A DNA stretch of 47,757 nt from Myxococcota bacterium (GTDB lineage Bacteria > Myxococcota > XYA12-FULL-58-9 > JALHOP01), in contig JBGGMJ010000163.1 of assembly GCA_041288095.1 (NCBI GenBank), positions 1 through 47,757 of the forward strand. Reading direction: 5' to 3'. Below, one piece after another: positions 8,854-47,295 of this stretch; position 1 is the stretch's first letter; each line of letters starts with the position of its first letter. Below the pieces are notes generated by a model, which was not told where the DNA came from, did no database searches, and saw only the letters and a program-made list of their open reading frames with translations. A program made the position numbers and the translations under genes.

Positions 8854-9762
8854 CGTCGCTGCCTGACGTTCGACGTCGGCGACCAGCGGCAACATCTTGC
8901 GCAAGCGTGCCGCGTGACGCTCCCACTTGTCCGGACGAGGCGGCGACAGCGTATGTGTCGAGAGGGGCAGTGGACCCGTGGCGATCTGCGCGGCGACATC
9001 CGCGAAGTCGAGCTCCGCGAGCGCACCGATTCGCCGTAGCACCGCCGCTGGGTCATCGACGAGCTCGCGGTAGCCGACCGCGCACCAGTCGGCTCGCGGC
9101 ACCTCGTTTAGATCCGCTAAAACGACACGCATGGATTCGCGCCACTGGAACGCCACGCAGGCGTCGATGGGCTTGCCACTGACGCTCTGGTAGCCCTCGG
9201 GCAAGAGCATGGACCACGGACCACGAAAACCGGCGAGCGATGCATAGGTGATGAACTTGCCCGACTCCCACGCCTCGATCATGCTCGACATCGCCTCGCG
9301 GGCGTCGCGCACGAGCAACACGAAGCGCGCTCCGGGAAACACCGCGCGCATGAAGGGCACGCGCAACATGTTCTTCGGTGTCTTCTCGATGAAGCGTATC
9401 GCGGCCGGCCGCGCCGCCGGAGAGCAGTCGAGGTAGCGCACCCCGCGAACATCCCGGGCCCCAAGGAGGAAGCCGCTGCGAAGAGTGAGGACGGTATCGG
9501 GGTCGGCGTCGTGCTCGTTGAGTCTGTTCGAGCGGACACGACCGTCCATGGGGTCGAAGCCGCCCAGCTCCTCGATGACGCCGTGGCTCTCCCCACCGAG
9601 GCCGTAGACGGCGCTCGACCGCGTCAACAGCTCGTAGAGCAACGTGCTTCCCGAGCGCGGCGCGGAGAGGACGATCAGCGGCCGGTCGAAAAAGTCGGGC
9701 CGCTCGGCGATGCGTCGCGCCGCGCGTAGATCTCCGGGGTTGTAGCGGCCTGCATCGGTCAC
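8827..9762 (-). CDS. Sulfotransferase family protein
   Basis: LSAPRSGSTLL (5'-PSB loop), EKTPKN, LVRD..AMSS (3'-PB), YRELVDDP. Confidence 0.92.
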   Translation of the reverse strand: MTDAGRYNPGDLRAARRIAERPDFFDRPLIVLSAPRSGSTLLYELLTRSSAVYGLGGESHGVIEELGGFDPMDGRVRSNRLNEHDADPDTVLTLRSGFLLGARDVRGVRYLDCSPAARPAAIRFIEKTPKNMLRVPFMRAVFPGARFVLLVRDAREAMSSMIEAWESGKFITYASLAGFRGPWSMLLPEGYQSVSGKPIDACVAFQWRESMRVVLADLNEVPRADWCAVGYRELVDDPAAVLRRIGALAELDFADVAAQIATGPLPLSTHTLSPPRPDKWERHAARLRKMLPLVADVERQAATLLAPGAPA

Positions 9763-10604
9763 GTGGTGAACGGGTGGAAGGAGTGCTGCACGACTTCGGC
9801 GCGTACGAGGATATCGAGGACCTCGTTGATTTGCGACTCCGACAGCGACGGCACGCCTGCCCGCGCGTCATGCGGGGTGAACGCCTTCTTCTGCATGCGC
9901 AACCAGCGGGCCAAGGGCTCGAGCTCGCGCGTCAGCTCGAGCTCGACCGGGTCGACATCGGCGGCGGTCACCACCACGAGGTGCGGTCGCCCGAGCGGCG
10001 TTTCGACCTTGGCGCCGGGCGCGAGCCGCAAGTGCACGGTGAACTTCGGGTCCGGGCGAAAAAAGCGCAGCTCCCCCGGAATCACCCAATCGACGAGCAA
10101 GTGCACGCGATCGCGGTCACCCTGATTGTGACAAGAGTGCTCGCGCTGGTTGTTGATCTCCCAGAGCTCGCCGTACGGCACCGCTTTCGTCTCGCCTCCC
10201 ACTGTGAACCAAGCCGACGGGTGGGTGACCACGGGCAGGTGGACGCGATGCGAGTTGGTGAGCGAGAAGCCGGCGTCGGAGTGCGGATGAACGCGTGCTT
10301 CGGGAGGCAAGCGGGCAAACAAAGCGCGTACGGGATAGCCGGTGCCGTAGTGCCCTTCCAGCCGTCGATAGATGGCCTGCATTTCGGCGTCGAAGCGCGC
10401 ATGCGCCGCCAGCTTCGTCGGCGCGTCGTGGCGATAGTCCTTGTCGAACATCAGCAGGATCGTGTTCGACTCGCGATGCGGTCGATAGACGTGCTGGCGC
10501 CAGCCGTCTTCGAGCCAATCATCGGCGCCGAGCGCTTCGACCTTGGCCCGCAAGGCGTCCGTCGCGTGTGGGCCGATGAGGGAGAAACTCCCATCGAAAT
10601 CCAT
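9759..10604 (-). CDS. Aspartyl/asparaginyl beta-hydroxylase-type Fe(II)/2-oxoglutarate oxygenase with C-terminal helical extension
   Basis: HPHSD (HxD), RVHLP, WEINNQREHSCHN, RVHLLVD. GTGA-coupled to the sulfotransferase. Confidence 0.88.
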   Translation of the reverse strand: MDFDGSFSLIGPHATDALRAKVEALGADDWLEDGWRQHVYRPHRESNTILLMFDKDYRHDAPTKLAAHARFDAEMQAIYRRLEGHYGTGYPVRALFARLPPEARVHPHSDAGFSLTNSHRVHLPVVTHPSAWFTVGGETKAVPYGELWEINNQREHSCHNQGDRDRVHLLVDWVIPGELRFFRPDPKFTVHLRLAPGAKVETPLGRPHLVVVTAADVDPVELELTRELEPLARWLRMQKKAFTPHDARAGVPSLSESQINEVLDILVRAEVVQHSFHPFTT

Positions 10605-11259: not shown

Positions 11260-11876
11260 GCATGCCCGCGGAGCTCAAGGCGAAGCTCGCCGCCGAGATT
11301 CAACGCACTCCATCGCCGACGCGGTCGCAGCTTTCGTTGCGTACCGCTATTGCGGTCGTGGTCGGCCTCGTAGGCACCGCCATCATCCTCGGCCGCCACG
11401 GCATTCGTCCCGGCACGCGCGAGCCTTTCTTCATGGCCGCGGTCACGCTGATCATGCTGAGCTTCGCGGCCCGCACCTTGTTGGCGGCCATGGGCAGCCT
11501 CTGGACGAGCCCGCGAGGTACGCAGCGCTTGGTGGCGATGCCGTTCGTGCTCCTCTCGGCGGTCGCGATAGCGTACGCGCAAGCCCCAGCGCAGGCGCAT
11601 TCGCTGCGCGGCGATCTGCCCTGCGTCCTCATGACCCTCGCCATCGGCGGCATCGTTGGCGCCGCCGTCTTCGTGGCGCGCCGGGCAACCGAGCCGCTGC
11701 GGCCGACTCTCAACGGGCTCTTGCTCGCGAGCTTCTCAGCCGCGGTCGCCGGCGCCGCGGTGTTCCTTGCTTGTCCGCTGGCGGAGACCTGGCACTTCGC
11801 GATTGGTCATGTCGGCGGCGCGATACTGCTCGGCGGGCTGCTGGGCGCGATTGGCGCGCGAGTGATGCGAGCCTAA
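11256..11876 (+). CDS. NrsF/DUF1109-like membrane anti-sigma factor
   Basis: ATGA-coupled to the ECF; about 6 TM segments; conserved-type Cys (LPCV) and LACP...H motif. Confidence 0.75.
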   Translation: MSMPAELKAKLAAEIQRTPSPTRSQLSLRTAIAVVVGLVGTAIILGRHGIRPGTREPFFMAAVTLIMLSFAARTLLAAMGSLWTSPRGTQRLVAMPFVLLSAVAIAYAQAPAQAHSLRGDLPCVLMTLAIGGIVGAAVFVARRATEPLRPTLNGLLLASFSAAVAGAAVFLACPLAETWHFAIGHVGGAILLGGLLGAIGARVMRA

Positions 11877-34858: not shown

Positions 34859-35908
34859 CTACAGCGTCTTCATGTCGATGACGAAGCGGTACTTCACGTC
34901 CTGCTTCAGCATGCGCTCGTAAGCATCGTTGATCTTCTCCATCGGGATCTTCTCGATGTCCGACGTGATGCCGTGCTTGCCGCAGAAGTCGAGCATCTCC
35001 TGCGTCTCCTTGATGCCGCCGATGAGCGAGCCCGCGAGGCTCTTGCGGCCGAAGATCATGTGGAAGATCGTCGGCGACGGATGCGGGTGCTCGGGTGCGC
35101 CGACCAGCACCAGCGTGCCGTCGCGCTTCAAGCAAGCGATTTCCGGGTCGAGATTGTGCGCCGCCGACACCGTGTCGATGATGAGATCGAGCTGCCCGGC
35201 CATCTTCGTCATGGCCTCGGCGTCCTTCGACACGACCACTTCCTTGGCACCGAGTCGCAGGCCGTCTTCCCGCTTGTTGGGCGAGCTGGTGAAGAGCACG
35301 ACGTGGGCGCCGAGCGCCGCGCCGAGCTTCACGCCCATGTGTCCGAGACCACCAAGGCCGACGATGCCGACCTTCTTGCCCGGGCCGGCGCCCCAGTGCT
35401 TGAGCGGCGACCAGGTGGTGATGCCGGCGCACAAGAGCGGCGCCGCGCCGGCGAGGTCCAACCCCTTCGGCATGCGGAGGACGAACTTCTCGTCGACGAC
35501 GACCTTGTCCGAGTAGCCGCCCAGCGTGTTGTCGCCGGTCTTGCGGTCGGGCGCGTTGTACGTGCCGGTGAAGCCGCGCTCGCAGAACTGCTCGAGACCG
35601 TCACTGCAAGCGGAGCACTCGCGGCAGGAGTCGACCATGCAGCCGACGCCGACGAGGTCGCCCTTCTTGAAGCTCTTCACGGAAGCGCCGACGGCACCGA
35701 CGGTACCGACGATCTCGTGCCCAGGCACGCACGGGTAAATGGTCCCACCACCCCATTCGTTACGGACGGTGTGGAGGTCGGAGTGGCAGACGCCGCAGAA
35801 AGCGATGTCGACCTGAACGTCGTTGGGGCGCAAATCACGGCGTTGGATTTGCAACGGAGCCATGGGGCTCTTGGCATTGGCGGCGGCGAAGGCTTTGGTT
35901 GGCAGCAT
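34859..35908 (-). CDS. Zn-dependent NAD(P)-dependent alcohol dehydrogenase (CAD/YahK family)
   Basis: CGVCHSD, GHEIVG, C..C..C.......C Zn site, [30 protein letters not shown]. Confidence 0.95.
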
Positions 35909-36002
35909 TTTCGAGGTTCCTTTTTTGGGGCGGGTGCACGTTGGTACCTCCGCGACCTCCGCGCAAGCACTTCGGAGCCTTCTCGTGTTAAGGAGGCCCG
36001 GC

Positions 36003-36938
36003 ATGTCTGGTTCCGATGCCATCATCACGGTCGAAAACCTTTCGAAAACCTATGCTTCCGGCGTTCGCTCCCTCGATGACGTGAGCCTCGAGATTCGTCG
36101 CGGAGAGATCCTCGCGCTGCTCGGTCCGAACGGCGCCGGCAAGACGACGCTCATCAACATCGTCTGCGGCATCGTCAAGCCGACGTCGGGAACTGTCCGC
36201 GTTGACGGACACGATGTGATGCGCTCCTTTCGCGGCGCCCGCAAGCTCATAGGTCTCGTACCGCAAGAGCTCGCGACCGACGCTTTCGAGTCGGTATGGT
36301 CGACGGTGCGTTTCAGCCGCGGCTTGTTCGGGAAGCCCGATAACCCGGCGCACCTCGAGAAGGTGCTGCGCGACCTATCGTTGTGGGACAAGAAGGACGC
36401 GAAGATCATGACGCTTTCGGGCGGCATGAAGCGGCGCGTGCTCATCGCCAAAGCCTTGGCGCACGAGCCGCGGATCTTGTTTCTCGACGAGCCGACCGCG
36501 GGTGTCGACGTCAACTTGCGGCGCGACATGTGGGCCATGGTGCGTAAGCTCCGTGAAAGCGGAGTCACGATCATCCTGACGACGCACTACATCGAGGAAG
36601 CGCAGGAGATGGCCGATCGCATCGGCATCATCAACAAGGCAAAGCTCCTCTTCATCGAAGACAAGGCGCAGCTCATGCGCAAGCTCGGCAAGAAAGAGCT
36701 CGCCATGCAGCTACAAGCGCCGCTGACAGCCGTGCCCGAGGCCCTTGCCGGCAGGAAGCTGACGCTCGGCGACGGTGGCAACTCGCTCATCTACACCTAC
36801 GACAGCAACGCAGCGGACACGGGCATCGCCGGCTTGCTCGACGAAGTCGAGCGCTCGGGCATCGTCTTCACCGATCTGCGCTCCCGTGAAAGCTCGCTCG
36901 AGGACATCTTCATCGACTTGGTGAAGGAGAGATCGTGA
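36003..36938 (+). CDS. ABC transporter ATP-binding protein (YadG-like)
   Basis: [40 protein letters not shown]. Confidence 0.95.
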
Positions 36939-37696
36939 ACCTCTACGCCATTCGCGCCATCTATCGTTTCGAGATGGCGCGCACCTTCCGCACCGTCACC
37001 CAGAGCATCGTCGCGCCCGTGCTCACGACGTCGCTCTACTTCGTGGTCTTCGGCTCGGCGATCGGCGGCCGTGTCGGCGGCATCGAGGGCGTGAGCTACG
37101 GGGCCTTCATCATCCCGGGGCTCGTGATGTTGTCGATGCTGTCCGAAAGCATCTCCAACGGTTCCTTTGGCATCTTCTTGCCCAAGTGGTCGGGCACCAT
37201 CTTCGAGCTGCTGTCGGCGCCGGTCGCGCCGATCGAGGCGATCATCGGCTACGTCGGCGCCGCGGCCTCGAAGTCGCTGATGCTCGGCGTGCTGATGCTG
37301 GCTACAGCGCGCTTTTTCGTGGCCTACGAGATCCATCATCCGTTCTGGATGGTGGGCTTCTTGATCTTGACCGCTATAACGGCCAGCACCTTTGGCTTCA
37401 TCATCGGCATCTGGGCCGACAGCTTCCAGAAGCTGCAGGTCATCCCAGTGCTCGTGGTGACGCCCCTCACCTTCCTAGGTGGCAGCTTCTATTCCATCTC
37501 GATGCTGCCGCCGATCTGGCAGAAGATCACGCTCGCGAATCCGGTCGTCTATCTGGTGAACGGATTCCGCTGGAGCTTCTATGGCGTATCGGATTTCGCC
37601 GTCGGTACGAGCTTCGCCGTCATCATGTCGCTGCTGGCGGCGTGTTTTCTTCTCATCTGGCGGATCTTCGTCACCGGCTACAAGCTGAAGGCCTGA
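36935..37696 (+). CDS. ABC-2 type transporter permease (YadH-like)
   Basis: [42 protein letters not shown] coupling. Confidence 0.93.
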
Positions 37697-37701
37697 TAGC
37701 G

Positions 37702-38151
37702 ATGAGCGAATCGTGCTCGATGTGCGCGGCTCTCGAGAAAGAGCGTCCGCTTTGGCAGAATGATCTCTGGGCCGTGCGGCATATCGAAGCCCCTTGGGGG
37801 CTCGCCGGTTGGATGCAGATGGTCGCGAAGCGCCACGTTACCGCGCTCGCCGCCATGAACGACGCCGAGAGCGCGAGCTTCGGACCGACCCTGCGCTGGC
37901 TCGAGAAGACGCTGCTCGAAGTGAGCGGCGCCGAGCGCATTTACACGGCGGCGCTAGGCGAGGCCGTGCCGCACCTCCACGTCCATATGGTGCCGCGCTA
38001 CGTCACCATGCCGAAGGGCGCCAAGGGCTGGCCTGTCTTCGACCTGCAGCGTGCCGGCAAAGTCGGAGAGATCGTCGTCCCGAGCGACCGCGTCGAGAAG
38101 ATCAGCCGCGCGTTTGCCGCGGCGCTGAGCCAACCGCCACGACGACGCTGA
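37702..38151 (+). CDS. HIT family protein
   Basis: CxxC, KRHV, VPHLHVHMVPRY histidine triad. Confidence 0.88.
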   Translation: MSESCSMCAALEKERPLWQNDLWAVRHIEAPWGLAGWMQMVAKRHVTALAAMNDAESASFGPTLRWLEKTLLEVSGAERIYTAALGEAVPHLHVHMVPRYVTMPKGAKGWPVFDLQRAGKVGEIVVPSDRVEKISRAFAAALSQPPRRR

Positions 38152-38185: not shown

Positions 38186-38219
38186 GCAGTTGCCATACCT
38201 TGTACAAACCTTGTACACG
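38186..38219 (+). promoter_or_regulatory. CarH/CarA-type operator overlapping the crt operon promoter
   Basis: 11-bp tandem repeats GCAGTTGCCAT, ACCTTGTACAA, ACCTTGTACAC (nnnnTnnACAn pattern); TTGCCA(38190-95)-N18-TACACG. Confidence 0.8.
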
Positions 38220-38229
38220 GGTATGGGCA

Positions 38230-38847
38230 ATGACCATGGTGTTGGGAACGCTGCTCGTCATCGGCCTCATGGGTGCGACCTCGACCGTGGAAACCGGCGC
38301 CGCGCGCGCCGCCTACTGGGAAGGCAGGGCCGCGAGCGGTAAAGCCCGGCGGGAGCACTTCCAGCGCGGTGTCGACGCCGCCCGTGCCGTCCTCGCGGAG
38401 CATCCCGACGACCCCGAAGGCCTCTTGTGGTTGGCGGCGAACCTCGGCGCCGAGGCCCTCGAACGCGGGAAGCTTCGCGCGCTGCCGGTCATCCCCAAGA
38501 TGGTCGAGCTCCTGAACCGGCTCGACCGCGTCGCGCCGAGCTTCGAAAATGCCGCGGCCGCGCGCACGCTCGGACACCTCTACGCGGTGGCGCCACCGGT
38601 GATCTCGGTCGGCAGCGACACCAAGGCCCGAGACCACTTCGAACGGGCGCTCGCGCTCGCCCCCGACTTTCCTGGCAACTTGGCGCTCGCCGCCGACTTC
38701 TTCGACGACGAAGGCGACGAAGGCGACGAGGAACGAGCGCTCGAGCTGGCGCGGCGTTGTCTCCTCACGTTGCCGCATTTCTTCCGCGATCCCGAAGCCA
38801 AGGAATGGCGCGCCATCGCGGAACGCATCGTCGAGGACAACGGCTGA
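38230..38847 (+). CDS. Exported TPR-like protein (TatT/RMD-like helical repeats), first gene of the crt operon
   Basis: Hydrophobic N-terminus; HPDDPEGLLWLAANLG, RTLGHLY..APP..S.G....A..HFERAL..AP. Confidence 0.7.
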   Translation: MTMVLGTLLVIGLMGATSTVETGAARAAYWEGRAASGKARREHFQRGVDAARAVLAEHPDDPEGLLWLAANLGAEALERGKLRALPVIPKMVELLNRLDRVAPSFENAAAARTLGHLYAVAPPVISVGSDTKARDHFERALALAPDFPGNLALAADFFDDEGDEGDEERALELARRCLLTLPHFFRDPEAKEWRAIAERIVEDNG

Positions 38848-39971
38848 TGACCTACGACGTCGTCCTCGTGGGTGGCGGCCTCTCCAACGGGCTGATCATG
38901 CTCGCCCTCGTCCACGCGAGCCCACGAGGGCGTATCGCCATCGTCGAGCAAGACGAGAAGCTCGGCGGCAACCATCACTGGTCGTTTCACGCCGCCGACG
39001 TGCCGGATGCCGCATGGCCATGGTTCGAGCCGTTGGTCGCTCATCGCTGGCCAAGCTACGACGTACGCTTTCCAACGTTCGAACGACGCGTCGACTCCCC
39101 CTACGCCACCGTCACCAGCGCCACGTTGGACGCGGCGGTCCGGCGCGCCGCGGACCAAGCCGGCGCGACCGTCATCCTCGGCCACCGGGTCACCTCGGTG
39201 CAGGCCGACCATGTAACGCTCGATGACGGCACGCGCCTCGTCGGCAACCTCGTCGTCGATGCGCGCGGCCCAGCGGCGCCTGGCAAGGCTGGCCTCGCCT
39301 ATCAGAAATTCCTCGGGCTCACGCTCCGGGTCGCCGGCGATATCCCAGCGAGGCCCATCGTCATGGACGCCTGCGTCCCGCAAGAACGCGGGCTGCGCTT
39401 CGTCTACGTCTTGCCGTTGGGCGGCGACCGGGTGCTCATCGAGGACACCTATTACGACGAGTCGCCGGTCCTCGATCGCACGCCCTTGCGCGCCAACGTG
39501 CTCGACTACGCGCGGGCGCAGGGCCTTGCGGTCATCGACGTCTTGGGGTCGGAGCACGGCGTGTTGCCGCTTCCGCTAGAGCGGACGATGACACCGCGCA
39601 TGGCGCGCCCGTTGATCGCGGGCTACGCCGGAGGCTGGCTGCAGCCCACCACTGGCTATTCGCTGCCCGTCGCGGTGCGTCTGGCGCTGGCGCTCGCCTC
39701 CGCGGATCCCGATACCGCCGTCGCCGACCTCGCGGCGCGGCATTCCGAGCAGGCGGTCTTCCTGCGGCGCCTGAATCGCTGGCTGTTCCGCGGCATCGCA
39801 CCCGAGCATCGCTGGCGCTTGTTCGCGAAGTTCTATCACCTGCCCAACGACGTCGTGGCGCGCTTCTACGCCATGGAGCTGGGCCCGCTCGAGCGCTGGC
39901 GCGTCGTCGCCGGCGTACCTCCTCGGGGCATGCGCGTACGTGAGCTGCTGCGCGCCGTGGGGGATGCATGA
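38847..39971 (+). CDS. crtY: Lycopene beta-cyclase
   Basis: VGGGLSNG, GGNHHWSF, YQKFLG, P.VMDA.V.Q..G.RFVY.LP, LIEDTYY, PTTGYSLP, FY.L....VARFYA. Confidence 0.92.
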   Translation: MTYDVVLVGGGLSNGLIMLALVHASPRGRIAIVEQDEKLGGNHHWSFHAADVPDAAWPWFEPLVAHRWPSYDVRFPTFERRVDSPYATVTSATLDAAVRRAADQAGATVILGHRVTSVQADHVTLDDGTRLVGNLVVDARGPAAPGKAGLAYQKFLGLTLRVAGDIPARPIVMDACVPQERGLRFVYVLPLGGDRVLIEDTYYDESPVLDRTPLRANVLDYARAQGLAVIDVLGSEHGVLPLPLERTMTPRMARPLIAGYAGGWLQPTTGYSLPVAVRLALALASADPDTAVADLAARHSEQAVFLRRLNRWLFRGIAPEHRWRLFAKFYHLPNDVVARFYAMELGPLERWRVVAGVPPRGMRVRELLRAVGDA

Positions 39972-40942
39972 GCATCGCCGACCTCCTATCGCGCACCATC
40001 GGCTCCGAGAGCGGCGTCCTCCGCCCGTGGCTCGACGCGGCGCTGGTCTCGCCACTCGATGGCTTCGTTCGCCAACCGGGTAAGCGGTTCCGTGGCCGCC
40101 TCGTCCAAATCGCCTGGGACCTGGCAATGCCTCCCGGCTCGAGCAGAGTCTTGCCGCCCGAGCTGCCGCAGGTCCTCGAGCTCGTCCATGCCGGCTCACT
40201 CATCGTCGACGACATCGAGGACGGCTCGAGCTCCCGGCGCGGCGCGCCCACCCTGCACTCGAGCCACGGGGTGCCGCTCGCTCTCAACGCCGGGAACGCG
40301 CTCTACTTCCTGCCCATCGTCGGCCTGCCGGCCATAGGCCTGTCCGCCGACGCGGAGCTCGCGATTCATCGGGAGCTCGCGCGCACCATGTCGCGATGCC
40401 ACGCCGGCCAAGCGCTGGACATCTACGCGACCCTCGACCGCGTACCTGTCGATGAAGTGCCTGAGCTCGTCGAGAGCATCGCGGGTCTCAAGACCGGCAG
40501 CCTCATGAGCGCCGCGGCTCGCCTCGGCGCCATCGCCGCGGGCGCGCCGAGCGCGGTCATCGAGGCGCTAGGCGCCTTCGGCTGCGAGCTCGGCATCTGC
40601 TTGCAGTTGCTCGACGACCTCGCGAATCTCTCGAGCCAGAGCGATCCGCAAAAGCGGCTCGAAGACTTGCGGGCACGCCGAATCACCTGGGTCTGGTCGT
40701 GGCTCGCTCGCCACCGGCCACGTGAACAGGTGCTCGACCTGCGCCGGCGCATCCTCGAGGGCAACGGCACCGTCGAGCCCACGGCGGCGGAGATCGTCGC
40801 GATGCTCGGCGACGGTCCGCGCCTGGAGGTACGCGATCGCCTGCACACCGCATCCCTGAAGCTCGCCACCCTGCTTGGCGAGCATCCAACCTTCGAAGTC
40901 CTCTTCGCCGAGGTCCGACGCCTGGAGGCAAGTTATGGGTGA
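39968..40942 (+). CDS. crtE: Polyprenyl (GGPP) synthase
   Basis: GKRFR, ELVHAGSLIVDDIED..RRG, GQALD, KTG, QLLDDLAN. Confidence 0.85.
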   Translation: MSIADLLSRTIGSESGVLRPWLDAALVSPLDGFVRQPGKRFRGRLVQIAWDLAMPPGSSRVLPPELPQVLELVHAGSLIVDDIEDGSSSRRGAPTLHSSHGVPLALNAGNALYFLPIVGLPAIGLSADAELAIHRELARTMSRCHAGQALDIYATLDRVPVDEVPELVESIAGLKTGSLMSAAARLGAIAAGAPSAVIEALGAFGCELGICLQLLDDLANLSSQSDPQKRLEDLRARRITWVWSWLARHRPREQVLDLRRRILEGNGTVEPTAAEIVAMLGDGPRLEVRDRLHTASLKLATLLGEHPTFEVLFAEVRRLEASYG

Positions 40943-42404
40943 GTCCCGCCGCGTCGCGGTGATCGGCAGCGGCTTCGGTGGGCTCGCCGCCGCCATTCGC
41001 TTGCAGACCGCCGGCATGCAGGTCACCGTCTTCGAAGCGCGCGACAAGCCCGGTGGCCGCGCCTACGTCTACGAAGATCAGGGTTTCACCTTCGACGCGG
41101 GGCCCACGGTCATCACCGCGCCCGATTGCATCGAGGAGCTCTTCCGCTTGAGCGGACGCAAGATGCGCGACTACGTCGAGCTCCTACCCGTCAGCCCCTT
41201 CTACCGCCTCCGTTGGGAGGATGGCGACAGCCTCGACTACGACCAGGACTTCGGCGAACGCATCGGGGCCAAGTGGCCGACCGAACGAGCAGGCTACGAG
41301 CGGTTCCTCGGCTACAGCCGCGACGTGTTCGCCAAAGGCTACACCGAGCTCGCCGCCACGCCGTTCCTGCGTTTCTGGGACATGGTGCGTGTCGCGCCCG
41401 AGCTGGCCCGCTTGCGCGCCGACCGCTCGGTGTATGACACGGTCGCGCGGTTCATCGGTAACGAGAAGCTACGCCAGGCGTTGTCGTTCCACGCGCTGCT
41501 GGTTGGCGGCAATCCGTTCGAGACCAGCGCCATCTACACCCTCATTCACTACCTCGAGCGTCAGTGGGGGGTGCATTTCCCACGCGGCGGCACCGGAGCG
41601 TTGGTGCAAGCGCTCGTGCGACTCCTGCGCGAGCTAGGCGGCGAGCTGCATCTGGGGCTTGCGGTCCGCCGTGTCCGCTTGAGCGGTGGAAAGCATTTTG
41701 TCACGACCGATACGGGCGAGACGGCCTTCGACGCCGTGGTTTCGAACGCCGACCTGGCGCACACCTACGCCGACCTCCTACGCGGCGAAGGGCGGGCCGA
41801 GCCCATGCGCAAGCGGCTCACCGGCATGGAATGGTCGATGTCGCTCTTCGTCATCTACTTCGGCACCAACCGCCGCTGGCCTGACCTCGCGCACCACACC
41901 GTGCTCTTCGGGCCGCGCTACCAAGAGCTCCTGCGCGATATCTTCCGCGGCAGCATCCTTCCCGACGACTTCTCGCTGTACCTACACGCGCCAACGGTGA
42001 CCGATCCATCGCTCGCGCCCGTCGGCTGCGAAGCATTCTACGTTTTGAGTCCCGTGCCGCATCTCGGGAACGCCGACCTCGATTGGGAGGCCATCGCGCC
42101 CGCATACGCGGACCGCATCCTCGCGTATCTCGAGCGTGACCTGCCTGGGCTCACTTCGAGCATCGTCACCAAGCGCTGGTTCACGCCGCGCGACTTCGCA
42201 TCGGAGCTGTCGGCGCACCACGGCTCGGCGTTTTCGGTCGCGCCGCGCCTGACGCAGAGCGCTTGGTTCCGGCCGCACAACCGCGACCCCAACATTCCCG
42301 GCCTCTATCTGGTCGGAGCCGGAACCCACCCCGGCGCCGGCGTGCCCGGAGTCATCAACTCGGCGAAGGCGACGGCACAGCTCATGGTTCGTGATTTCGC
42401 ATGA
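40935..42404 (+). CDS. crtI: Phytoene desaturase
   Basis: IGSGFGGL, FDAGPTVIT, LLVGGNP, SLYLHAP, WFRPHNRD, GAGTHPGAGVPG. Confidence 0.95.
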   Translation: MGESRRVAVIGSGFGGLAAAIRLQTAGMQVTVFEARDKPGGRAYVYEDQGFTFDAGPTVITAPDCIEELFRLSGRKMRDYVELLPVSPFYRLRWEDGDSLDYDQDFGERIGAKWPTERAGYERFLGYSRDVFAKGYTELAATPFLRFWDMVRVAPELARLRADRSVYDTVARFIGNEKLRQALSFHALLVGGNPFETSAIYTLIHYLERQWGVHFPRGGTGALVQALVRLLRELGGELHLGLAVRRVRLSGGKHFVTTDTGETAFDAVVSNADLAHTYADLLRGEGRAEPMRKRLTGMEWSMSLFVIYFGTNRRWPDLAHHTVLFGPRYQELLRDIFRGSILPDDFSLYLHAPTVTDPSLAPVGCEAFYVLSPVPHLGNADLDWEAIAPAYADRILAYLERDLPGLTSSIVTKRWFTPRDFASELSAHHGSAFSVAPRLTQSAWFRPHNRDPNIPGLYLVGAGTHPGAGVPGVINSAKATAQLMVRDFA

Positions 42405-43348
42405 ACCGCCCGTTCGACGATGAGGCGCTGCGCCTGTGCCGCGAGTCGCTGCGGCGCAACTCGCGCAGCTTCAGCTGGGCGTCGCTCCTATTGCCGGCCG
42501 CGGCGCGCGATCCGGTCGCCGTGATCTATGCCTGGTGCCGGCGCTGCGACGACGCTATCGACGACGTCCACGCAGGCGAGCAAGCCGAGGCCCTCGAGCG
42601 CCTGGCCGCCGAGGTCGATGCCATCTACGCCGGGGAGCCGATGCGTGACGTCGTGCTCACCGCCTTCCAGGTCGTCGTGCGGCGCCACCGCATCCCGCGC
42701 GTCTACGTCGACGAGCTACTCCTGGGCTTCTCCATGGACCTCGGCGTCGTCCGCTATGCCACGCGCGAGGAGCTCTTGCTCTATTGCTACCGTGTAGCCG
42801 GCGTCGTCGGACTGATGCTCTGTCACGTCATCGGCCTCGGGGATCAGACCCTTCTCGGGCGCGCCGCTCATCTCGGGATGGCGATGCAGCTCACGAACAT
42901 CTGCCGCGACGTCGCGGAGGATTGGGGACGGGGCCGCCGCTATGTTCCGAGCGAGCTGTTGCCCGCCGGGTCGCCCGAACCAGGTGGACCCGAGCCCTTT
43001 CCGCCTGGGCTCGCGCCGGCGTATGTCGAGCCGCTGCGGCATCTGCTCGCGATAGCGGATCGATACTACACTTCAGCCGACGCGGGCATCGTGGCGCTCG
43101 GCTTCCGCTCGGCGCTCGCGGTTCGCATGGCTCGTCGCGTTTACGCCGCCATCGGTTCGGTGATCGGCAAGCGCAACCACGACGTCGCGAGCGGGCGCGC
43201 CGTCGTCAGCGGCGCCGCCAAGCTCGGCATCATGTTGCGCGCCATCGCCGCCACTATCGCCGAGCTGCCTCGACGGTTGGCGACCAGGAGTCGACTCGCG
43301 CCGCCGCGGAAGATCGTGAGGTTCGAAGATGCAACTCTTGCCGCGTGA
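42401..43348 (+). CDS. crtB: Phytoene synthase
   Basis: SRSF, YAWCRRCDDAID, YCYRVAGVVG, LGMAMQLTNICRDVAED..GRRYVP. Confidence 0.95.
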   Translation: MNRPFDDEALRLCRESLRRNSRSFSWASLLLPAAARDPVAVIYAWCRRCDDAIDDVHAGEQAEALERLAAEVDAIYAGEPMRDVVLTAFQVVVRRHRIPRVYVDELLLGFSMDLGVVRYATREELLLYCYRVAGVVGLMLCHVIGLGDQTLLGRAAHLGMAMQLTNICRDVAEDWGRGRRYVPSELLPAGSPEPGGPEPFPPGLAPAYVEPLRHLLAIADRYYTSADAGIVALGFRSALAVRMARRVYAAIGSVIGKRNHDVASGRAVVSGAAKLGIMLRAIAATIAELPRRLATRSRLAPPRKIVRFEDATLAA

Positions 43349-43907
43349 GCTCGTGGTCTACGTCGGCCGCATCCGCGAGTTCGATCGCGCCGACTGGGCG
43401 GTCTACTTGTTTTGGGTCGTGGGCATGGTCGGGCTTGGGGTCGTCATCGCCGCGTTCCAACTGTTCGGGCGCGCTCACGGCGCCGTCTTTCCCGCCGAGG
43501 CATATCTCGTCCCCATCGGGGTGGCGATCTTCGCGGCCGCTATCGCGGTCGACACCATCGGTCACCGCACCATCTACAAGGAAGCGCTGCGGGGCGGCGA
43601 GCAGCTCGTGCATCACGTCATCATCGCGCTCGGCATCGCCAGCTGTGTCTTGCTGTGCCTCGCCTACGAGCATCCGCGCACCTACGCCATCCCGGCGGCG
43701 GTAGTTACTTCTCTCAGCTTCGTCTATTCGCTGGTCGACGAGGCCATGCACTGGCGCCGTTACATCAAGGCGAAATCGGACAGGGTCGAGATGTGGAGCC
43801 ACGTCTTCATTCTCACCGGCCACAGCATCATGATGCTCGGCTGGTGGCGGTGGTTCATGCTCGGCTACCCGGGAGTGGCCGAAACCTTGCGAGCCATCTC
43901 CGCGTGA
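43329..43907 (+). CDS. Uncharacterised 5-TM membrane protein with four [D/E]xxxH motifs; candidate carotenoid-modifying metalloenzyme
   Basis: DTIGH, EQLVHH, DEAMH, EMWSH; overlaps crtB and is coupled to the GT. Confidence 0.7.
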   Translation: MQLLPRELVVYVGRIREFDRADWAVYLFWVVGMVGLGVVIAAFQLFGRAHGAVFPAEAYLVPIGVAIFAAAIAVDTIGHRTIYKEALRGGEQLVHHVIIALGIASCVLLCLAYEHPRTYAIPAAVVTSLSFVYSLVDEAMHWRRYIKAKSDRVEMWSHVFILTGHSIMMLGWWRWFMLGYPGVAETLRAISA

Positions 43908-45100
43908 CGCGAAAGCGGATTCTCTTCGTCGCCGAGGCCGTGACGTTGGCTCAAGTCGTGCGGCTTCGCGTCCTGGCGGCTTCCCTCGACCCCGCGCGCT
44001 ACGACGTGCACTTCGCCAGCAGCACCTTCGATCCGCTCGTCTTCGCCGGCACGCATTTCACCCGCTGGCATATCGCGTCGCTTACGCCGCATCAGGTCGA
44101 GCGCGCCGTGGCACGAGGGTCACGCATCTATTCCGCCGCGACGCTGTCCAGCTACGTCGACGCGGAGCTGGGATTGTTCGACCGCGTGCGGCCGGATCTG
44201 GTGGTGGGAGATCTTCGCTGGTCGCTCGCGGTCTCCGCTCCCCATGCCGGCGTTCCACTCGCGTCGCTCATCAACGCGTACTGGAGCCCCTTCGCCCAGC
44301 GCGACGGTTTCCCGATGCCCGACCATCCGGTGCTACGCCTCCTCGCCGAGGCCACCGCTGAGCGCTACTTCCCGCGGGCGCTGCCGTGGGTCTTCCAGCT
44401 CTTCGCTCGCCCGCTGAACGTCGTGCGCCGGCGCTACGGCTTGCCGCCACTCGGCGACCTGCTCGAGCTGCTCACCTATGGTGACTACACCGTCCATCCG
44501 GATGTCTCCGAGCTCACGCCCCTTCGTGGCGCGCCCCATTCACACGTCTTCTTGGGGCCGGTGTTGTGGTCGGCGGCCGTCGCGTGTCCGGCGCTGGCCC
44601 AGCTCGGCGGCAAGCGCCCGCTGGTCTACGTGACGCTGGGCTCGTCGGGTCACTTGGCGGCGTTGAACGCGGTCCTCGATGGCCTGGGGGCGCTCGACGT
44701 CGACGTGCTCCTCGCGACCGCGGGGCGGGTGCGCCCGATGAACCTGCCCGCCAACGTGCACGTCGCGGATTTCGTACCCGGCGATGAAGCAGCCCGGCGT
44801 GCGTCCCTCGTCGTCTGCAATGGAGGAAGCACGACGGCCTACCAAGCCCTCGCCGCGGGCACACCCGTGCTCGGCGTTGCTTTCAACTTCGATCAACACC
44901 TGGCGATGCAAGCCATCGACCGCTACGGCGCCGGCGTGCGACTGCGCGCCACGACGCTCGAGCCCGCGCAGGTTCGCAACGCGGCGACCCACATGCTGGC
45001 GAGCACGAGCTTCAGGGCGCGGGCGGCGAGCTTGCGCGATTGCTTCGCGACTTACGACTACCGGAAGACTTTCGCGAGCCTCGTGTCCGCGGCGACCTGA
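43904..45100 (+). CDS. GT1 family glycosyltransferase (resembles mycobacterial PGL/p-HBAD rhamnosyltransferase type)
   Basis: RILFVAEAVTLAQVVR, PDLVVGD.R, YVTLGSSG, VCNGGS, DQ motif. Confidence 0.85.
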   Translation: MTRKRILFVAEAVTLAQVVRLRVLAASLDPARYDVHFASSTFDPLVFAGTHFTRWHIASLTPHQVERAVARGSRIYSAATLSSYVDAELGLFDRVRPDLVVGDLRWSLAVSAPHAGVPLASLINAYWSPFAQRDGFPMPDHPVLRLLAEATAERYFPRALPWVFQLFARPLNVVRRRYGLPPLGDLLELLTYGDYTVHPDVSELTPLRGAPHSHVFLGPVLWSAAVACPALAQLGGKRPLVYVTLGSSGHLAALNAVLDGLGALDVDVLLATAGRVRPMNLPANVHVADFVPGDEAARRASLVVCNGGSTTAYQALAAGTPVLGVAFNFDQHLAMQAIDRYGAGVRLRATTLEPAQVRNAATHMLASTSFRARAASLRDCFATYDYRKTFASLVSAAT

Positions 45101-45965
45101 GCGTCGCGAGCAGGTCTTGCGCGCCGATACCGGCGGATCGGACTCCGCGTGGCAACGCACCGAGGCTCGCGACACCCTGCCCGCCCACCCAGAGTGGTCG
45201 ACCAGCGCAGGCGGTCTTGTATGCGGCGACTGCTCGGCGGTCGGCCGCGGTCGCCGGGTTCGTGAGCGACAAGCAGACCATCGCCGGGGATAGGTCGCGC
45301 ACCGCCACGGCGAGCGCCTCGGGGGGCGTTCTCGCACCGAGCACCACTGGGCGCAGCCCCCTTGCCGCGAGATGCACCGCGACGACGTAGCAAGCGACGT
45401 CGTGCTCCTCGTCAGGGAAACACGCGACCACCGCGACGCCCCGTAGGGGACGCGCACGCATGCCCGCGACGAGCGATGCGAGATGCGCACGCAGCCGTTG
45501 CACCAGCCAATGCTCGTGCGCGACACCGATGCGGCCGTCTGCCCAACGGTCGCCGAGCTCGACCAGCGCCGGCGCGAGCACATGGAGCACGGCTTCTTCG
45601 GCCGCGTAAGCGTGCGTCACCTCGGTGAGCACTCTCTCCAAGGTGGCGCCATCGAAGACGCATGCCGCGTCGAGCAGGCGGTCACGCAGCGTGTCCGCGT
45701 TAGCGAACGGCAGCGCCTTGGCGCCACGCTGCTCGCGAAGCACCTGCTCGGCGGCCTCGTGGGCCGCCATGCCGGAGCTGACTAGATCCTTCATGCGCGA
45801 TAGGGAGCGCAGATCGATCTCGCTATAGAGCCGGTAGCCGCTGTCGGTGCGCGCCGGCCGAGGAATGCCATATCGGCGCTCCCAGGCACGCAGTGTCGAC
45901 GCGCCGATGCCCGCGCGTTCGGCGGCTTCCACGATGCGGTATTTCGGCCGGAGCTCGCGCGCCAT
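45012..45965 (-). CDS. carH: B12-dependent MerR-family photoreceptor/repressor (CarH/LitR type)
   Basis: LRAWERRYG..P.RT..GYRLY; W-x9-EH (WADGRIGVAHEH); EEHDVA cobalamin motif; LG..TP, VGGQG. Confidence 0.82.
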   Translation of the reverse strand: MARELRPKYRIVEAAERAGIGASTLRAWERRYGIPRPARTDSGYRLYSEIDLRSLSRMKDLVSSGMAAHEAAEQVLREQRGAKALPFANADTLRDRLLDAACVFDGATLERVLTEVTHAYAAEEAVLHVLAPALVELGDRWADGRIGVAHEHWLVQRLRAHLASLVAGMRARPLRGVAVVACFPDEEHDVACYVVAVHLAARGLRPVVLGARTPPEALAVAVRDLSPAMVCLSLTNPATAADRRAVAAYKTACAGRPLWVGGQGVASLGALPRGVRSAGIGAQDLLATLRSPRTRGSRKSSGSRKSRSNRASSPPAP

Positions 45966-45999: not shown

Positions 46000-47295
46000 C
46001 TACCGATTGTGTTGTGCGAAGACGTCGAGGGGACGCGCTGGGCGGCAGCGGTGAGTCGCCTGGAAGACCCCGTAGTGCGCGTCGATCTCGGCGTCCTGGC
46101 CGGGCTCGAGGAAGGCGAGACACGGGCGAGTGCGATCGCCGAACAGACCCTCGGAGTCGAAGAGGAAGGCGCGGCCGTCGCGCAGGCGGCCGAAGGTGAC
46201 CGCGTGGCCTCGACCTTCGAGCAAGAAGGCGTCTCCCGCCGCCGCGGTGCGCGCAAGACCCGTCCACGGCACGGAACGGCCGGTGGGCTCGACATTGATG
46301 CCGCAGGCGCGCAGCGCTTGCCCGGTCTCATAGGCGTTGAGGCCCGAGGTGTGCTGCTGCGTGACCAGCAAGCTATCGGCGAGCTGTTGTAGCAGCGGTG
46401 CCGTGACCCGGCGGGGCGTCTGTCGCAGCGTCGCCAGCGTCGCTTTGGCCTTGTCGAGCTCCGCTTCGAGACAGGTGATGACGCGCTCGAGCAGCTTCAG
46501 CTCGTCGCCCGTGAGCTGGTACAGCGCGAGCATCTGACCAGCGGTCGCGAGATCGAGCTGGCGCTCGCCCAAGGTGACGCTGGACTCCCCACCTTTTGGA
46601 GCATCGACTCGGTACCAGGGAAGGTTCGCGCGCGTCGCGGGCACGGCGATGCGCTTGGTATTCTCGATACCAACGCCATCGCGGACGAACCACTTGAGCA
46701 TCTCGGCGTCCGGGCGCGCGACGCCGAGGATCACCTCGGTGCTTTGCAGCGCGACCGCGGCGACACTCACGGCGCGACTGCCGTCGGCGACGAAAAACGC
46801 GGTATCACCCAACCGCGGTGGCACACCGACCCCGATGCCCGGCGACTTCGCGAGGTCGTAGCCAAGCTCGAAGAGCGCGTTCTCGGGGGTCAAGCGGAAG
46901 GCGTCGATGTGTCGCTGCAGCTCCGGCAGCAAGGTCGCGCGCGCCTTTGCCCGCACGGATGCGTCGGGCGCGTCGAGCTCGTCGATGATGCCCCACAAGC
47001 TCTGAACGCGCGCTTCGAGCTCGCGCACCACGAAACCCGCCATGCCATCCACGTAGGGGGCGCCGGCCATGGACACAATCGCTATCGCGGACGATGCCGA
47101 GCACCGCGTGGTGTCCCAGTTGGTGGTGATGAGATCGTCGATCTGGTGGGTCTTGGAGACGGTGGCGACGACCTGCTCGAAGGCGTCGGTACCCTGCGCC
47201 CCGCTCTCACGCGCGTCGGCGGCGCCCGGGCCCCCGGCGGCAGCGGACGGACGCGGCGCGCCCGAAGGTGCCGTTACAGGGCGAAGCTGAACCAC
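46000..47295 (-). CDS. Hypothetical effector-like protein with a papain-fold Cys/His/Asp arrangement
   Basis: Disordered N-terminus ending TDAFE; TRCSASS (C65), GHAVTFG (H364), FLFDS (D380). Confidence 0.55.
   Translation of the reverse strand: MVQLRPVTAPSGAPRPSAAAGGPGAADARESGAQGTDAFEQVVATVSKTHQIDDLITTNWDTTRCSASSAIAIVSMAGAPYVDGMAGFVVRELEARVQSLWGIIDELDAPDASVRAKARATLLPELQRHIDAFRLTPENALFELGYDLAKSPGIGVGVPPRLGDTAFFVADGSRAVSVAAVALQSTEVILGVARPDAEMLKWFVRDGVGIENTKRIAVPATRANLPWYRVDAPKGGESSVTLGERQLDLATAGQMLALYQLTGDELKLLERVITCLEAELDKAKATLATLRQTPRRVTAPLLQQLADSLLVTQQHTSGLNAYETGQALRACGINVEPTGRSVPWTGLARTAAAGDAFLLEGRGHAVTFGRLRDGRAFLFDSEGLFGDRTRPCLAFLEPGQDAEIDAHYGVFQATHRCRPARPLDVFAQHNR

Follow-up and report, generated by a model that had tools for sequence, protein, structure and literature searches.

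A CarH-type carotenoid operon of a Myxococcota bacterium and its conserved five-helix membrane protein, a candidate for the missing oxygen-adding enzyme

How does a carotenoid operon that ends in a glycosyltransferase gene provide that enzyme with a hydroxyl group to work on, when none of the known hydroxylase or hydratase families is encoded at the locus? The question is posed by contig JBGGMJ010000163.1 of a Myxococcota bacterium (assembly GCA_041288095.1), whose full 47,757 nucleotides are referred to below as the window, and in which the genes of a carotene pathway stand behind an operator of the type bound by the photoreceptor repressor CarH. A first-pass annotation had called the locus a carotenoid glycoside operon with a pathway hole and two unknown genes. 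The hole, it is argued here, may be occupied by one of these two: a membrane protein with five transmembrane (TM) helices (the 5-TM protein), which belongs to no named family and whose gene is conserved together with crtY, crtE, crtI and crtB. That this protein is the missing oxygen-introducing enzyme of a CarH-repressed operon, and likely a metallo-hydroxylase, is a tentative proposal, held with a little less than even confidence. The protein is a candidate by elimination and by association, as the only conserved gene product of unknown role.

The assembly, from an uncultured bacterium, amounts to 5.85 Mb in 212 contigs and is 90% complete, the window being its contig C163; the GC content is ~66%, and the nearest public relatives are metagenome-assembled genomes (MAGs) labelled Myxococcota, Bdellovibrionales, Kofleriaceae, Polyangia and Haliangiales. 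Its operon reads as follows, with genes called from Pfam and NCBIfam profile searches of the window's proteins:

38186-38218, plus strand: CarH-type operator, a pseudo-repeat and two perfect tandem 11-bp direct repeats
38230-38847, plus strand: tetratricopeptide repeat (TPR) protein of the TatT/BstC lipid-binding superfamily, 205 aa (PF16811 TAtT above cut-off)
38847-39971, plus strand: crtY, lycopene beta-cyclase (TIGR01789, 315.4 bits; cut-off 215.2)
39968-40942, plus strand: crtE-like polyprenyl (geranylgeranyl diphosphate, GGPP) synthase (PF00348, E 3e-38)
40935-42404, plus strand: crtI, phytoene desaturase (TIGR02734, 653 bits)
42401-43348, plus strand: crtB, phytoene synthase (PF00494, E 2.1e-66)
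43329-43907, plus strand: 192-aa 5-TM membrane protein (no Pfam or NCBIfam family)
43904-45100, plus strand: GT1-family (GT-B) glycosyltransferase, referred to as GT1 (PF06722, PF00201, PF04101)
45012-45965, minus strand: carH, MerR-type adenosylcobalamin (AdoCbl) photoreceptor repressor (MerR_1, B12-binding_2 and B12-binding domains)

The plus-strand genes all overlap, the successive junctions being TGATG, ATGA, 8 nt, ATGA, 20 nt and GTGA (the start of crtI is placed at the ATG at 40935, which has a GGAGG ahead of it, and not at 40875). GT1 and carH are convergent, with 89 nt common to their coding regions; both congeners (loci L045 and L046) retain this overlap. Gene order, overlapping junctions, operator and convergent carH are all as the first-pass annotation had described them, the profile calls and a reading of the junctions confirming each. 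The cyclase is 37-42% identical to annotated CrtY proteins of Pantoea and Comamonas, and its best NCBIfam match is the bicyclic-type CrtY equivalog; crtI is the sole CrtI-family gene over the cut-off in the assembly (1 of 16 genome matches). The crtE-like gene reaches the cut-off of none of the NCBIfam equivalogs, and its position suggests that it provides the GGPP synthase of the pathway.

Where, then, is the oxygen-adding step encoded? Family searches of the window's contig return no match to the hydroxylase and hydratase families, which bears out what the first-pass annotation had said of the window. In the genome at large, CruF (PF04240) is absent by a search whose controls were positive in three genomes, tblastn finds no CrtZ of the Pantoea type, and a CrtD-type desaturase is not present. 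What the genome does hold are four FA_hydroxylase genes (three OlsE-like, one unnamed), three cytochrome P450 genes (two of them terpene-oxidase-like) and a single CrtC-family protein; none of these eight candidates is on the window's contig and none lies within 3 kb of a tandem repeat. The search for a canonical hydroxylase under a CarH-type operator elsewhere in the 90%-complete assembly thus found none. The CrtC-family protein (contig C96, L040 8844-9905) calls for a separate comment. Its CrtC_N and Lipocalin_9 domains have the two-lipocalin architecture of AttH, the start of its gene overlaps the stop of a MacB/FtsX permease gene, and an ABC ATPase gene lies ahead of that permease; as an AttH-like lipocalin in a MacB/FtsX ABC operon, it is rejected as a carotenoid hydratase. 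The arrangement also means that a match to PF07143, by itself, is no proof of such an enzyme.

A second line of evidence is what has stayed together in other genomes. The sample consists of the best 80 related Myxococcota loci (L045-L124), of which 51 have full flanks (no less than 5.5 kb on the upstream side and 5 kb on the downstream side). The gene directly upstream of the 5-TM gene is crtB at every locus that has at least 1 kb of upstream DNA (75/75), and crtY, crtE, crtI and crtB are all present wherever at least 5 kb is available (65/65); the linkage of this core to the 5-TM gene recurs in 8 of the 8 loci of a phylum sample. In a single metagenomic sequence (P0209, 480 aa, on a 23.8-kb contig) CrtB (PF00494) and a complete 5-TM protein are fused in frame. 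The conserved unit is crtY-E-I-B-5TM, and the GT1 and TPR genes are an optional addition to it. Orthologues of GT1 (at least 40% identity) occur at 20 of the 51 full-flank loci, usually accompanied by a TatT-like gene, and at 27 of all 80. Another 8 of the 51 have a CruG/HpnB-like GT2-family glycosyltransferase, which directly follows the 5-TM gene and whose best named matches, HpnB and CruG, both fall below cut-off (CruG at E 4.5e-35). GT1 and GT2 never occur together (0/51), and 23 of the 51 loci have neither. "Carotenoid glycoside operon" is accordingly an unsuitable name for the conserved core, in which GT1 and TPR have no fixed place.

Among the neighbours found at no fewer than 3 of the 80 loci and put to Pfam there is no canonical hydroxylase, ketolase or hydratase, the nearest oxygenase-like neighbour being a flavin-containing monooxygenase (FMO)-like protein at 4 loci. 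The crtY clusters of the f10 family that are without a 5-TM gene offer no informative substitute for it (a 250-aa open reading frame (ORF) found there appears non-coding). Searches of five genomes that have the core without an adjacent GT1 found an orthologue of GT1 in none of the five (best matches 29-33% identity, partial). The 5-TM protein therefore does not need the glycosyltransferase, and a role such as sugar acylation is correspondingly less likely. That two unrelated glycosyltransferases have been recruited beside one core suggests that the acceptor hydroxyl would come from a gene that both situations share, and the only shared gene of unknown role is the one encoding the 5-TM protein.

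What kind of protein is it? Its homologues form 1996 clusters at E ≤1e-3 among 5.8 billion proteins, all of them unnamed or "hypothetical"; at 50% identity the family reduces to 87 representatives, ~8 of them full length. The gene is present in 233 species-level genomes, mostly of uncultured Myxococcota, and in 9 of the 401 genomes of the phylum sample, distributed over four families (six weaker matches were left uncounted); the plasmid collection contains no homologue, and no description of the family was found in the literature, subscription journals lying outside the scope of that search. A scan of 19 diverse members turns up only scattered sub-threshold family matches. (Two technical notes. 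Weak matches in five genomes of the f17 family proved spurious in four cases, these being CDP-alcohol phosphatidyltransferases; the fifth, in G232 (L196 ~9400-10100, G232:C134), is a 187-aa membrane protein, ~30% identical to the 5-TM protein and with partly similar D..HH, DE...H, E...H and TGH motifs, whose gene follows dTDP-rhamnose genes (RmlA, RmlD and a dehydratase) and has no carotenoid cluster as its context. For the 23-28% identical homologues, a metagenome scan with P0176 for genomic context gave one spurious locus, and a cluster look-up gave no names.)

The pattern of conservation gives this family a catalytic look. Four (D/E)x3H motifs, D75/H79, E91/H95, D137-E138/H141 and E154/H158, are embedded in a set of positions that are at least 97% conserved in 130 homologues: D22, P55, F68, D75, H79, Y83, E91, H95, L109, P122, Y133, S134, D137, E138, H141, R144, E154, H158, W172 and Y180. 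In a set of 19 sequences that includes members only 23-28% identical, no substitution is seen at H79, E91, D137, E138, H141, E154 or H158, and at least 90% retain D75 and H95. The AlphaFold2 model (pLDDT 92, pTM 0.85) comprises an N-terminal amphipathic helix, five long TM helices and a C-terminal helix. Its loops contain 4, 3 and 5 Lys plus Arg residues on one side as against 1, 1 and 1 on the other, which places the (D/E)x3H pairs at the predicted cytoplasmic ends of helices 2-5; the CrtB-5TM fusion fits a topology with the N-terminus inside. CrtZ, CrtW, CrtR and CrtG, the di-iron carotenoid oxygenases of carotene rings, are likewise small polytopic membrane proteins, and they too have conserved histidines facing the cytoplasm. 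These enzymes are members of the FA_hydroxylase or FA_desaturase families, with HxxxxH and HxxHH boxes; the 5-TM protein matches neither family significantly (for FA_hydroxylase, PF04116, 0/19 members at E up to 5) and has four (D/E)x3H pairs instead.

Put together, these features suggest the following course of events. In the dark, CarH with bound AdoCbl would sit on the tandem repeats just ahead of the first gene and repress the operon; light would release it and turn the operon on. At the cytoplasmic membrane, on its inner face, CrtE, CrtB, CrtI and CrtY would now produce beta- or gamma-carotene, in either case a cyclic carotene, and the 5-TM protein, its synthesis presumably coupled translationally to that of CrtB, would put oxygen on it. 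Most likely it would do so as a new membrane metallo-oxygenase, a hydroxylase with a di-metal site that the four (D/E)x3H motifs could form where TM2-TM5 end on the cytoplasmic side, and it is because of these helix-end pairs that a metal-dependent hydroxylase is the favoured form of the proposal. The hydroxylated product would be glycosylated by the cytoplasmic GT1 (or by GT2, in loci having one), and the glycoside might be handled by the TatT/BstC-like TPR protein as a lipid carrier.

A number of observations weigh against this proposal and are best faced together. The argument for a metal site comes from the motifs, and the protein that carries them has no sequence relative in Pfam, NCBIfam or the Protein Data Bank (PDB; the profile search came back empty); hhalign against Pantoea CrtZ gives a probability of 0.3%. 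An internal repeat is in register, with hhalign E 0.11, and internal duplication is rejected as not significant. Searches with the model return generic helical bundles only (Foldseek E ≥0.48; VIA Z ≤9.1). At the 23 full-flank loci that have no glycosyltransferase, a hydroxyl is not demanded. The FA_hydroxylase and P450 genes elsewhere in the genome are possible hydroxylases, and genome-wide negatives are limited by the 90% completeness of the assembly. A scan for consensus sigma-70 promoters yields 0 sites, and the closest cultured homologues of GT1 belong to non-carotenoid clusters, isonitrile or phenolic-type.

(A further note on look-alikes of the model. BcTSPO aligns with VIA Z 8.5 and a root-mean-square deviation of 3.9 over 143 residues, at Foldseek E 0.64-0.71; these scores are in the range of generic bundles, a sequence signal is wanting (PF03073, TspO/CrtK, matches none of the 19 members), and a reading as TSPO/CrtK is not adopted. 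PhoU, at VIA Z 8.6, is in the same range and has an Atlas TM of 0.59; a PhoU-like metal bundle is suggestive only. The Atlas look-alikes are all unnamed clusters from Myxococcota, Bacteroidota and Acidobacteriota, and an Atlas search limited to named clusters gave no usable match.)

Several of these points would sit comfortably with an altogether different role: the 5-TM protein might be a membrane anchor, scaffold or redox/metal partner of CrtB, CrtI or CrtY, with the acceptor furnished by an unlinked P450 or FA_hydroxylase, or with GT1 acting on something other than a carotenoid. The loci without a glycosyltransferase, the three P450 and four FA_hydroxylase genes and the company kept by the homologues of GT1 all lend themselves to this account, as do the natural fusion to CrtB and the 20-nt overlap of the 5-TM start with the crtB stop. 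A mere anchor, on the other hand, would not require that nine charged or His residues stay nearly invariant in sequences as little as 23% identical. The candidate hydroxylases are all more than 3 kb from CarH-type repeats, no hydroxylase recurs beside the 80 loci (among the neighbours put to Pfam), two unrelated glycosyltransferase families attach to the cluster, and the fusion is one sequence only. We regard such a role as quite unlikely.

Might the protein be an oxygenase of another kind, a 4-ketolase, an epoxidase or a Blh-like retinal-forming cleavage enzyme? Retinal operons have the order crtEIBY-blh, which a set of crtE, I, B and Y with a small His-bearing membrane protein resembles, and one 5-TM family member, P0132, has a match to FA_desaturase (PF00487; E 9.9e-6; a separate tally counts 2/19 members). 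At 25.9 bits that match is below the cut-off of 29.7, and neither a keto group nor a cleavage product would give the sugar an acceptor. Rhodopsin (PF01036) is found neither in this genome nor in five others with a 5-TM gene, and members of the heliorhodopsin and BCD families are likewise absent from this genome, these searches being weak for want of any positive control genome. An oxygenase of this sort is decidedly improbable.

A hydratase is a serious alternative. The 5-TM protein would in that case be a carotenoid 1',2'-hydratase, of a third type beside CrtC and CruF, that hydrates gamma-carotene at its open end through acid-base catalysis and so makes a tertiary 1'-hydroxyl, which is then glycosylated. 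Monocyclic tertiary carotenoid glycosides have been reported from myxobacteria, and in cyanobacteria cruF and cruG are an adjacent pair, to which the 5-TM gene directly followed by a CruG/HpnB-like GT2 gene in 7-11 loci is analogous. Conserved Asp, Glu, His and Tyr residues within a membrane protein would suit proton chemistry too. There is also the distribution of CruF itself: PF04240 is found in 1 of the 9 genomes that have the 5-TM gene, as against 31 of the 43 CrtY-positive genomes that lack it, as though one stood in for the other (the tallies 52/401, 43 and 12/43 rest partly on G195, a genome flagged as unpublished). The contrast is a weak one because 39 of those 43 genomes share one family and are not independent; their PF04240 matches are themselves weak (E 1e-8 to 1e-13) and, where this is visible, unlinked to crtY (67 kb apart in G227).

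The one exception among the nine, the sister genome G066, carries CruF (PF04240, E 7e-43) in a 3.4-kb insert of UbiA prenyltransferase, amine-oxidase-type desaturase and CruF genes (L195 9597-12714, G066:C3). We take this order to be the lyeJ-crtD-cruF module of bacterioruberin-type C50 carotenoids, which is not the context of a gamma-carotene hydratase and leaves the exception harmless to the case for hydration. (The insertion site is syntenic to window positions 11825-11870. The present genome is cleanly without the three-gene insert, and the CruF-like gene of G066 is therefore rejected as a filler of the hole.) What speaks against hydration is, first, the cyclase: its best fit is to the bicyclic-type equivalog, and a bicyclase would leave no open end to hydrate. 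Second, the four helix-end (D/E)x3H pairs resemble a metal site more closely than they do the site of a hydratase; and third, the genome has one CrtI-family gene over cut-off and no CrtD-type desaturase. Hydration is, on balance, unlikely, and the metallo-hydroxylase remains the reading that we carry forward.

Is the operon controlled by light? The accessible part of PMC9304148 gives the CarH-type 11-bp repeat as nnnnTnnACAn. The operator repeats, GCAGTTGCCAT (38186-38196), ACCTTGTACAA (38197-38207) and ACCTTGTACAC (38208-38218), fit this form, the first as a pseudo-repeat and the other two perfectly, and they end 12 nt upstream of the first start codon, the ATG of the TPR gene. TGTACA-N5-TGTACA is found once in the 5.85-Mb assembly, and the looser TnnACA-N5-TnnACA has 17 sites over the two strands; of the two sites with three repeats, the one besides the operator lies inside the rpmB coding sequence. 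Both congeners keep the same repeats. The 80 related loci (2.55 Mb, both strands) contain 27 tandem sites, 24 of which are within 250 bp of the start of crtY, TPR, carH, crtE or GT1. Of the 27 loci that have carH next to the operon, 14 have tandem repeats upstream of it; of the 53 other loci 2 do, which makes 16 in all. The uniqueness of the strict form in the assembly and the clustering at crt and carH starts in relatives make the operator more than a chance match.

The repressor itself comprises all three domains. Its helix-turn-helix domain (PF13411, E 9.6e-14) contains RAWERRY, the RxWERRY motif of the recognition helix, at residues 26-32. The four-helix-bundle subdomain (PF02607, E 2e-10) has an intact Wx9EH, WADGRIGVAHEH at residue 141, which the same part of PMC9304148 treats as the mark of CarH as opposed to CarA. 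For the Rossmann B12 domain (PF02310, E 8.7e-9) that source defines the motif D/ExHx2G/P-x41-SxT/V-x22-27-GG; the window's protein reads E186-E-H-D-V-A, x41, SLT, x25, GG, so that the His and the spacing are kept and an Ala takes the place of Gly/Pro. The NCBIfam CarH equivalog (NF052513) is its best-scoring family, yet at 126.9 bits against a cut-off of 400, which marks it as a distant member of the CarH group. Control of the operon by light, through CarH and AdoCbl, is thus well supported by inference from operator and repressor motifs.

GT1 and the TPR protein form the accessory pair. GT1 is a natural-product-type enzyme with a GT-B fold and a C-terminal nucleotide-sugar domain, as judged from its three Pfam matches and from CalG1 in the PDB (E 5.9e-21). 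It is no orthologue of Pantoea CrtX, to which it is 23% identical over 295 residues, and its 38 plasmid matches (E ≤1e-5) include no Pantoea record. Genomic context thus speaks for the first-pass assignment of GT1 as a carotenoid glycosyltransferase, while the distance from CrtX and the non-carotenoid surroundings of its homologues speak against it; that its acceptor is a carotenoid is suggested by the context. The TPR protein, one of the two unknowns of the first-pass annotation, turns out not to be wholly unknown: it is a short member of the TatT/BstC superfamily. It matches PF16811 (TAtT) at 32.2 bits against a cut-off of 26.5 (E 9.2e-8, profile positions 106-199 of 263), the BstC family NF045602 below cut-off (E 3.9e-7) and, in the PDB, BstC (7t1s, E 8.2e-6) and the TatT of E. 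salina (Es_TatT, 8g52, E 2.2e-4). Its N-terminal segment is hydrophobic, without a visible lipobox Cys. At 22 of the 27 GT1 loci a TatT-like gene is found with GT1. The superfamily, according to the accessible part of PMC11713862, faces the periplasm and binds sterols or long-chain fatty acids, and ~1/4 of TatT proteins have partners other than TRAP transporters and are encoded beside lipid biosynthesis genes. The TPR protein is probably a carrier of the operon's lipid product.

How does the operon compare with systems that are understood? In its working it resembles two of them, and it belongs to the gene set of neither. With the crtE-X-Y-I-B-Z cluster of Pantoea, which makes zeaxanthin glucoside (the layout is seen in pEA320), it shares CrtE, CrtB, CrtI and CrtY, a glycosyltransferase of the GT1 family and a gene for a small membrane protein next to crtB. 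The Pantoea CrtY is 37-40% identical to that of the window, while its hydroxylase, CrtZ, is an FA_hydroxylase protein unrelated to the 5-TM protein, and Pantoea has neither CarH nor a TatT-like gene. With the carB operon of Myxococcus xanthus, as far as the accessible part of PMC9304148 describes it, the window's locus shares a photoregulated carotenoid operon, a MerR-B12 repressor (CarH/CarA) and operators of tandem 11-bp repeats; the M. xanthus pathway ends in glycosylated carotenoids, a product that would be expected by inference here. By the same account, M. xanthus employs CrtC, CrtD, a CrtYc/Yd cyclase, two CrtI proteins, orf6 and orf9. The window has a single CrtI, a cyclase of the CrtY type and the orphan 5-TM gene, and neither CrtC nor CrtD; the difference from the carB-carA set that had been claimed for it therefore holds against that source.

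The CruF-CruG pair of the cyanobacterial myxol glycoside pathway, a membrane protein that creates a hydroxyl followed by a GT2, is comparable to the 5-TM gene and its following GT2 at 8 of 51 loci; it differs in that the 5-TM family does not match PF04240 (0/19) and that the window has a GT1 instead. As for BstC and TatT proteins, to which the window's TPR protein is joined by its matches to PF16811, 7t1s and 8g52, their known ligands are sterols and fatty acids and not carotenoids, whereas here the partner is a GT1 next to carotenoid genes. A CarH-operated carotenoid operon is, in sum, a known thing; what is new is a constant, unclassified membrane protein in the place of CrtZ, CruF or CrtC, together with the pairing of GT1 and TatT.

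The surroundings of the operon include some features of separate interest. Just upstream of it (window 35823-37696) are genes for an ABC ATPase and an ABC-2 permease, which may be a carotenoid or lipid exporter, followed by an ORF with a HIT domain that ends at 38151; a homologue of the ABC ATPase is beside the crt cluster in 23 of the 80 related loci and also in a cluster without a 5-TM gene (L161). On the other side of the operon, a 431-aa ORF adjoining carH (46000-47295, minus strand) has no Pfam or NCBIfam family and is seen only in the two congeners (73-78% identity). Other recurrent flank neighbours in the 80 loci, of light-related or regulatory kinds, are an extracytoplasmic function (ECF) sigma factor (15 loci), a photolyase (5), TudS/DUF1722 (5), the FMO-like monooxygenase already mentioned (4), and a MurJ-like flippase together with an ABC ATPase and an OmpA-domain protein (5). 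One of the loci, L067, comes from a MAG labelled Verrucomicrobiia and has the full order crtY-E-I-B-5TM-TPR, which may reflect misbinning or gene transfer. Far from the operon, on contig C96 (L040 2715-4721), a transketolase occupies two adjacent ORFs (216 and 440 aa) that part within the N-terminal thiamine diphosphate (TPP) domain, perhaps through a frameshift or an error of assembly, or because the gene is truly split.

To our knowledge, the carotene hydroxylases, ketolases and hydratases known from bacteria belong without exception to a few families, and it is on that list of families that genome-based pigment prediction and pathway engineering depend. The five-gene unit described here, conserved in the 233 species-level genomes, includes no member of those families, and carries with it a strictly linked orphan membrane protein with catalytic-looking motifs. 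It is plausible, though at somewhat less than even odds, that the 5-TM protein founds a new class of membrane carotenoid-modifying enzyme, di-metal and unrelated to CrtZ, CrtR, CrtW, P450, CrtC or CruF, which hydroxylates cyclic carotenes in hundreds of uncultured Myxococcota, and that the TatT/BstC superfamily extends to carotenoid glycosides. The pairing of GT1 with a TatT/BstC-like protein is, in that connection, a concrete candidate for the trafficking of carotenoids across the envelope, a poorly understood step. Should the 5-TM protein be the oxygen-adding enzyme, a new class of enzymes would join that list, and xanthophyll engineering would gain a small, portable part; the polar carotenoids of these lineages would also be explained, and their annotation as producers of beta-carotene corrected.

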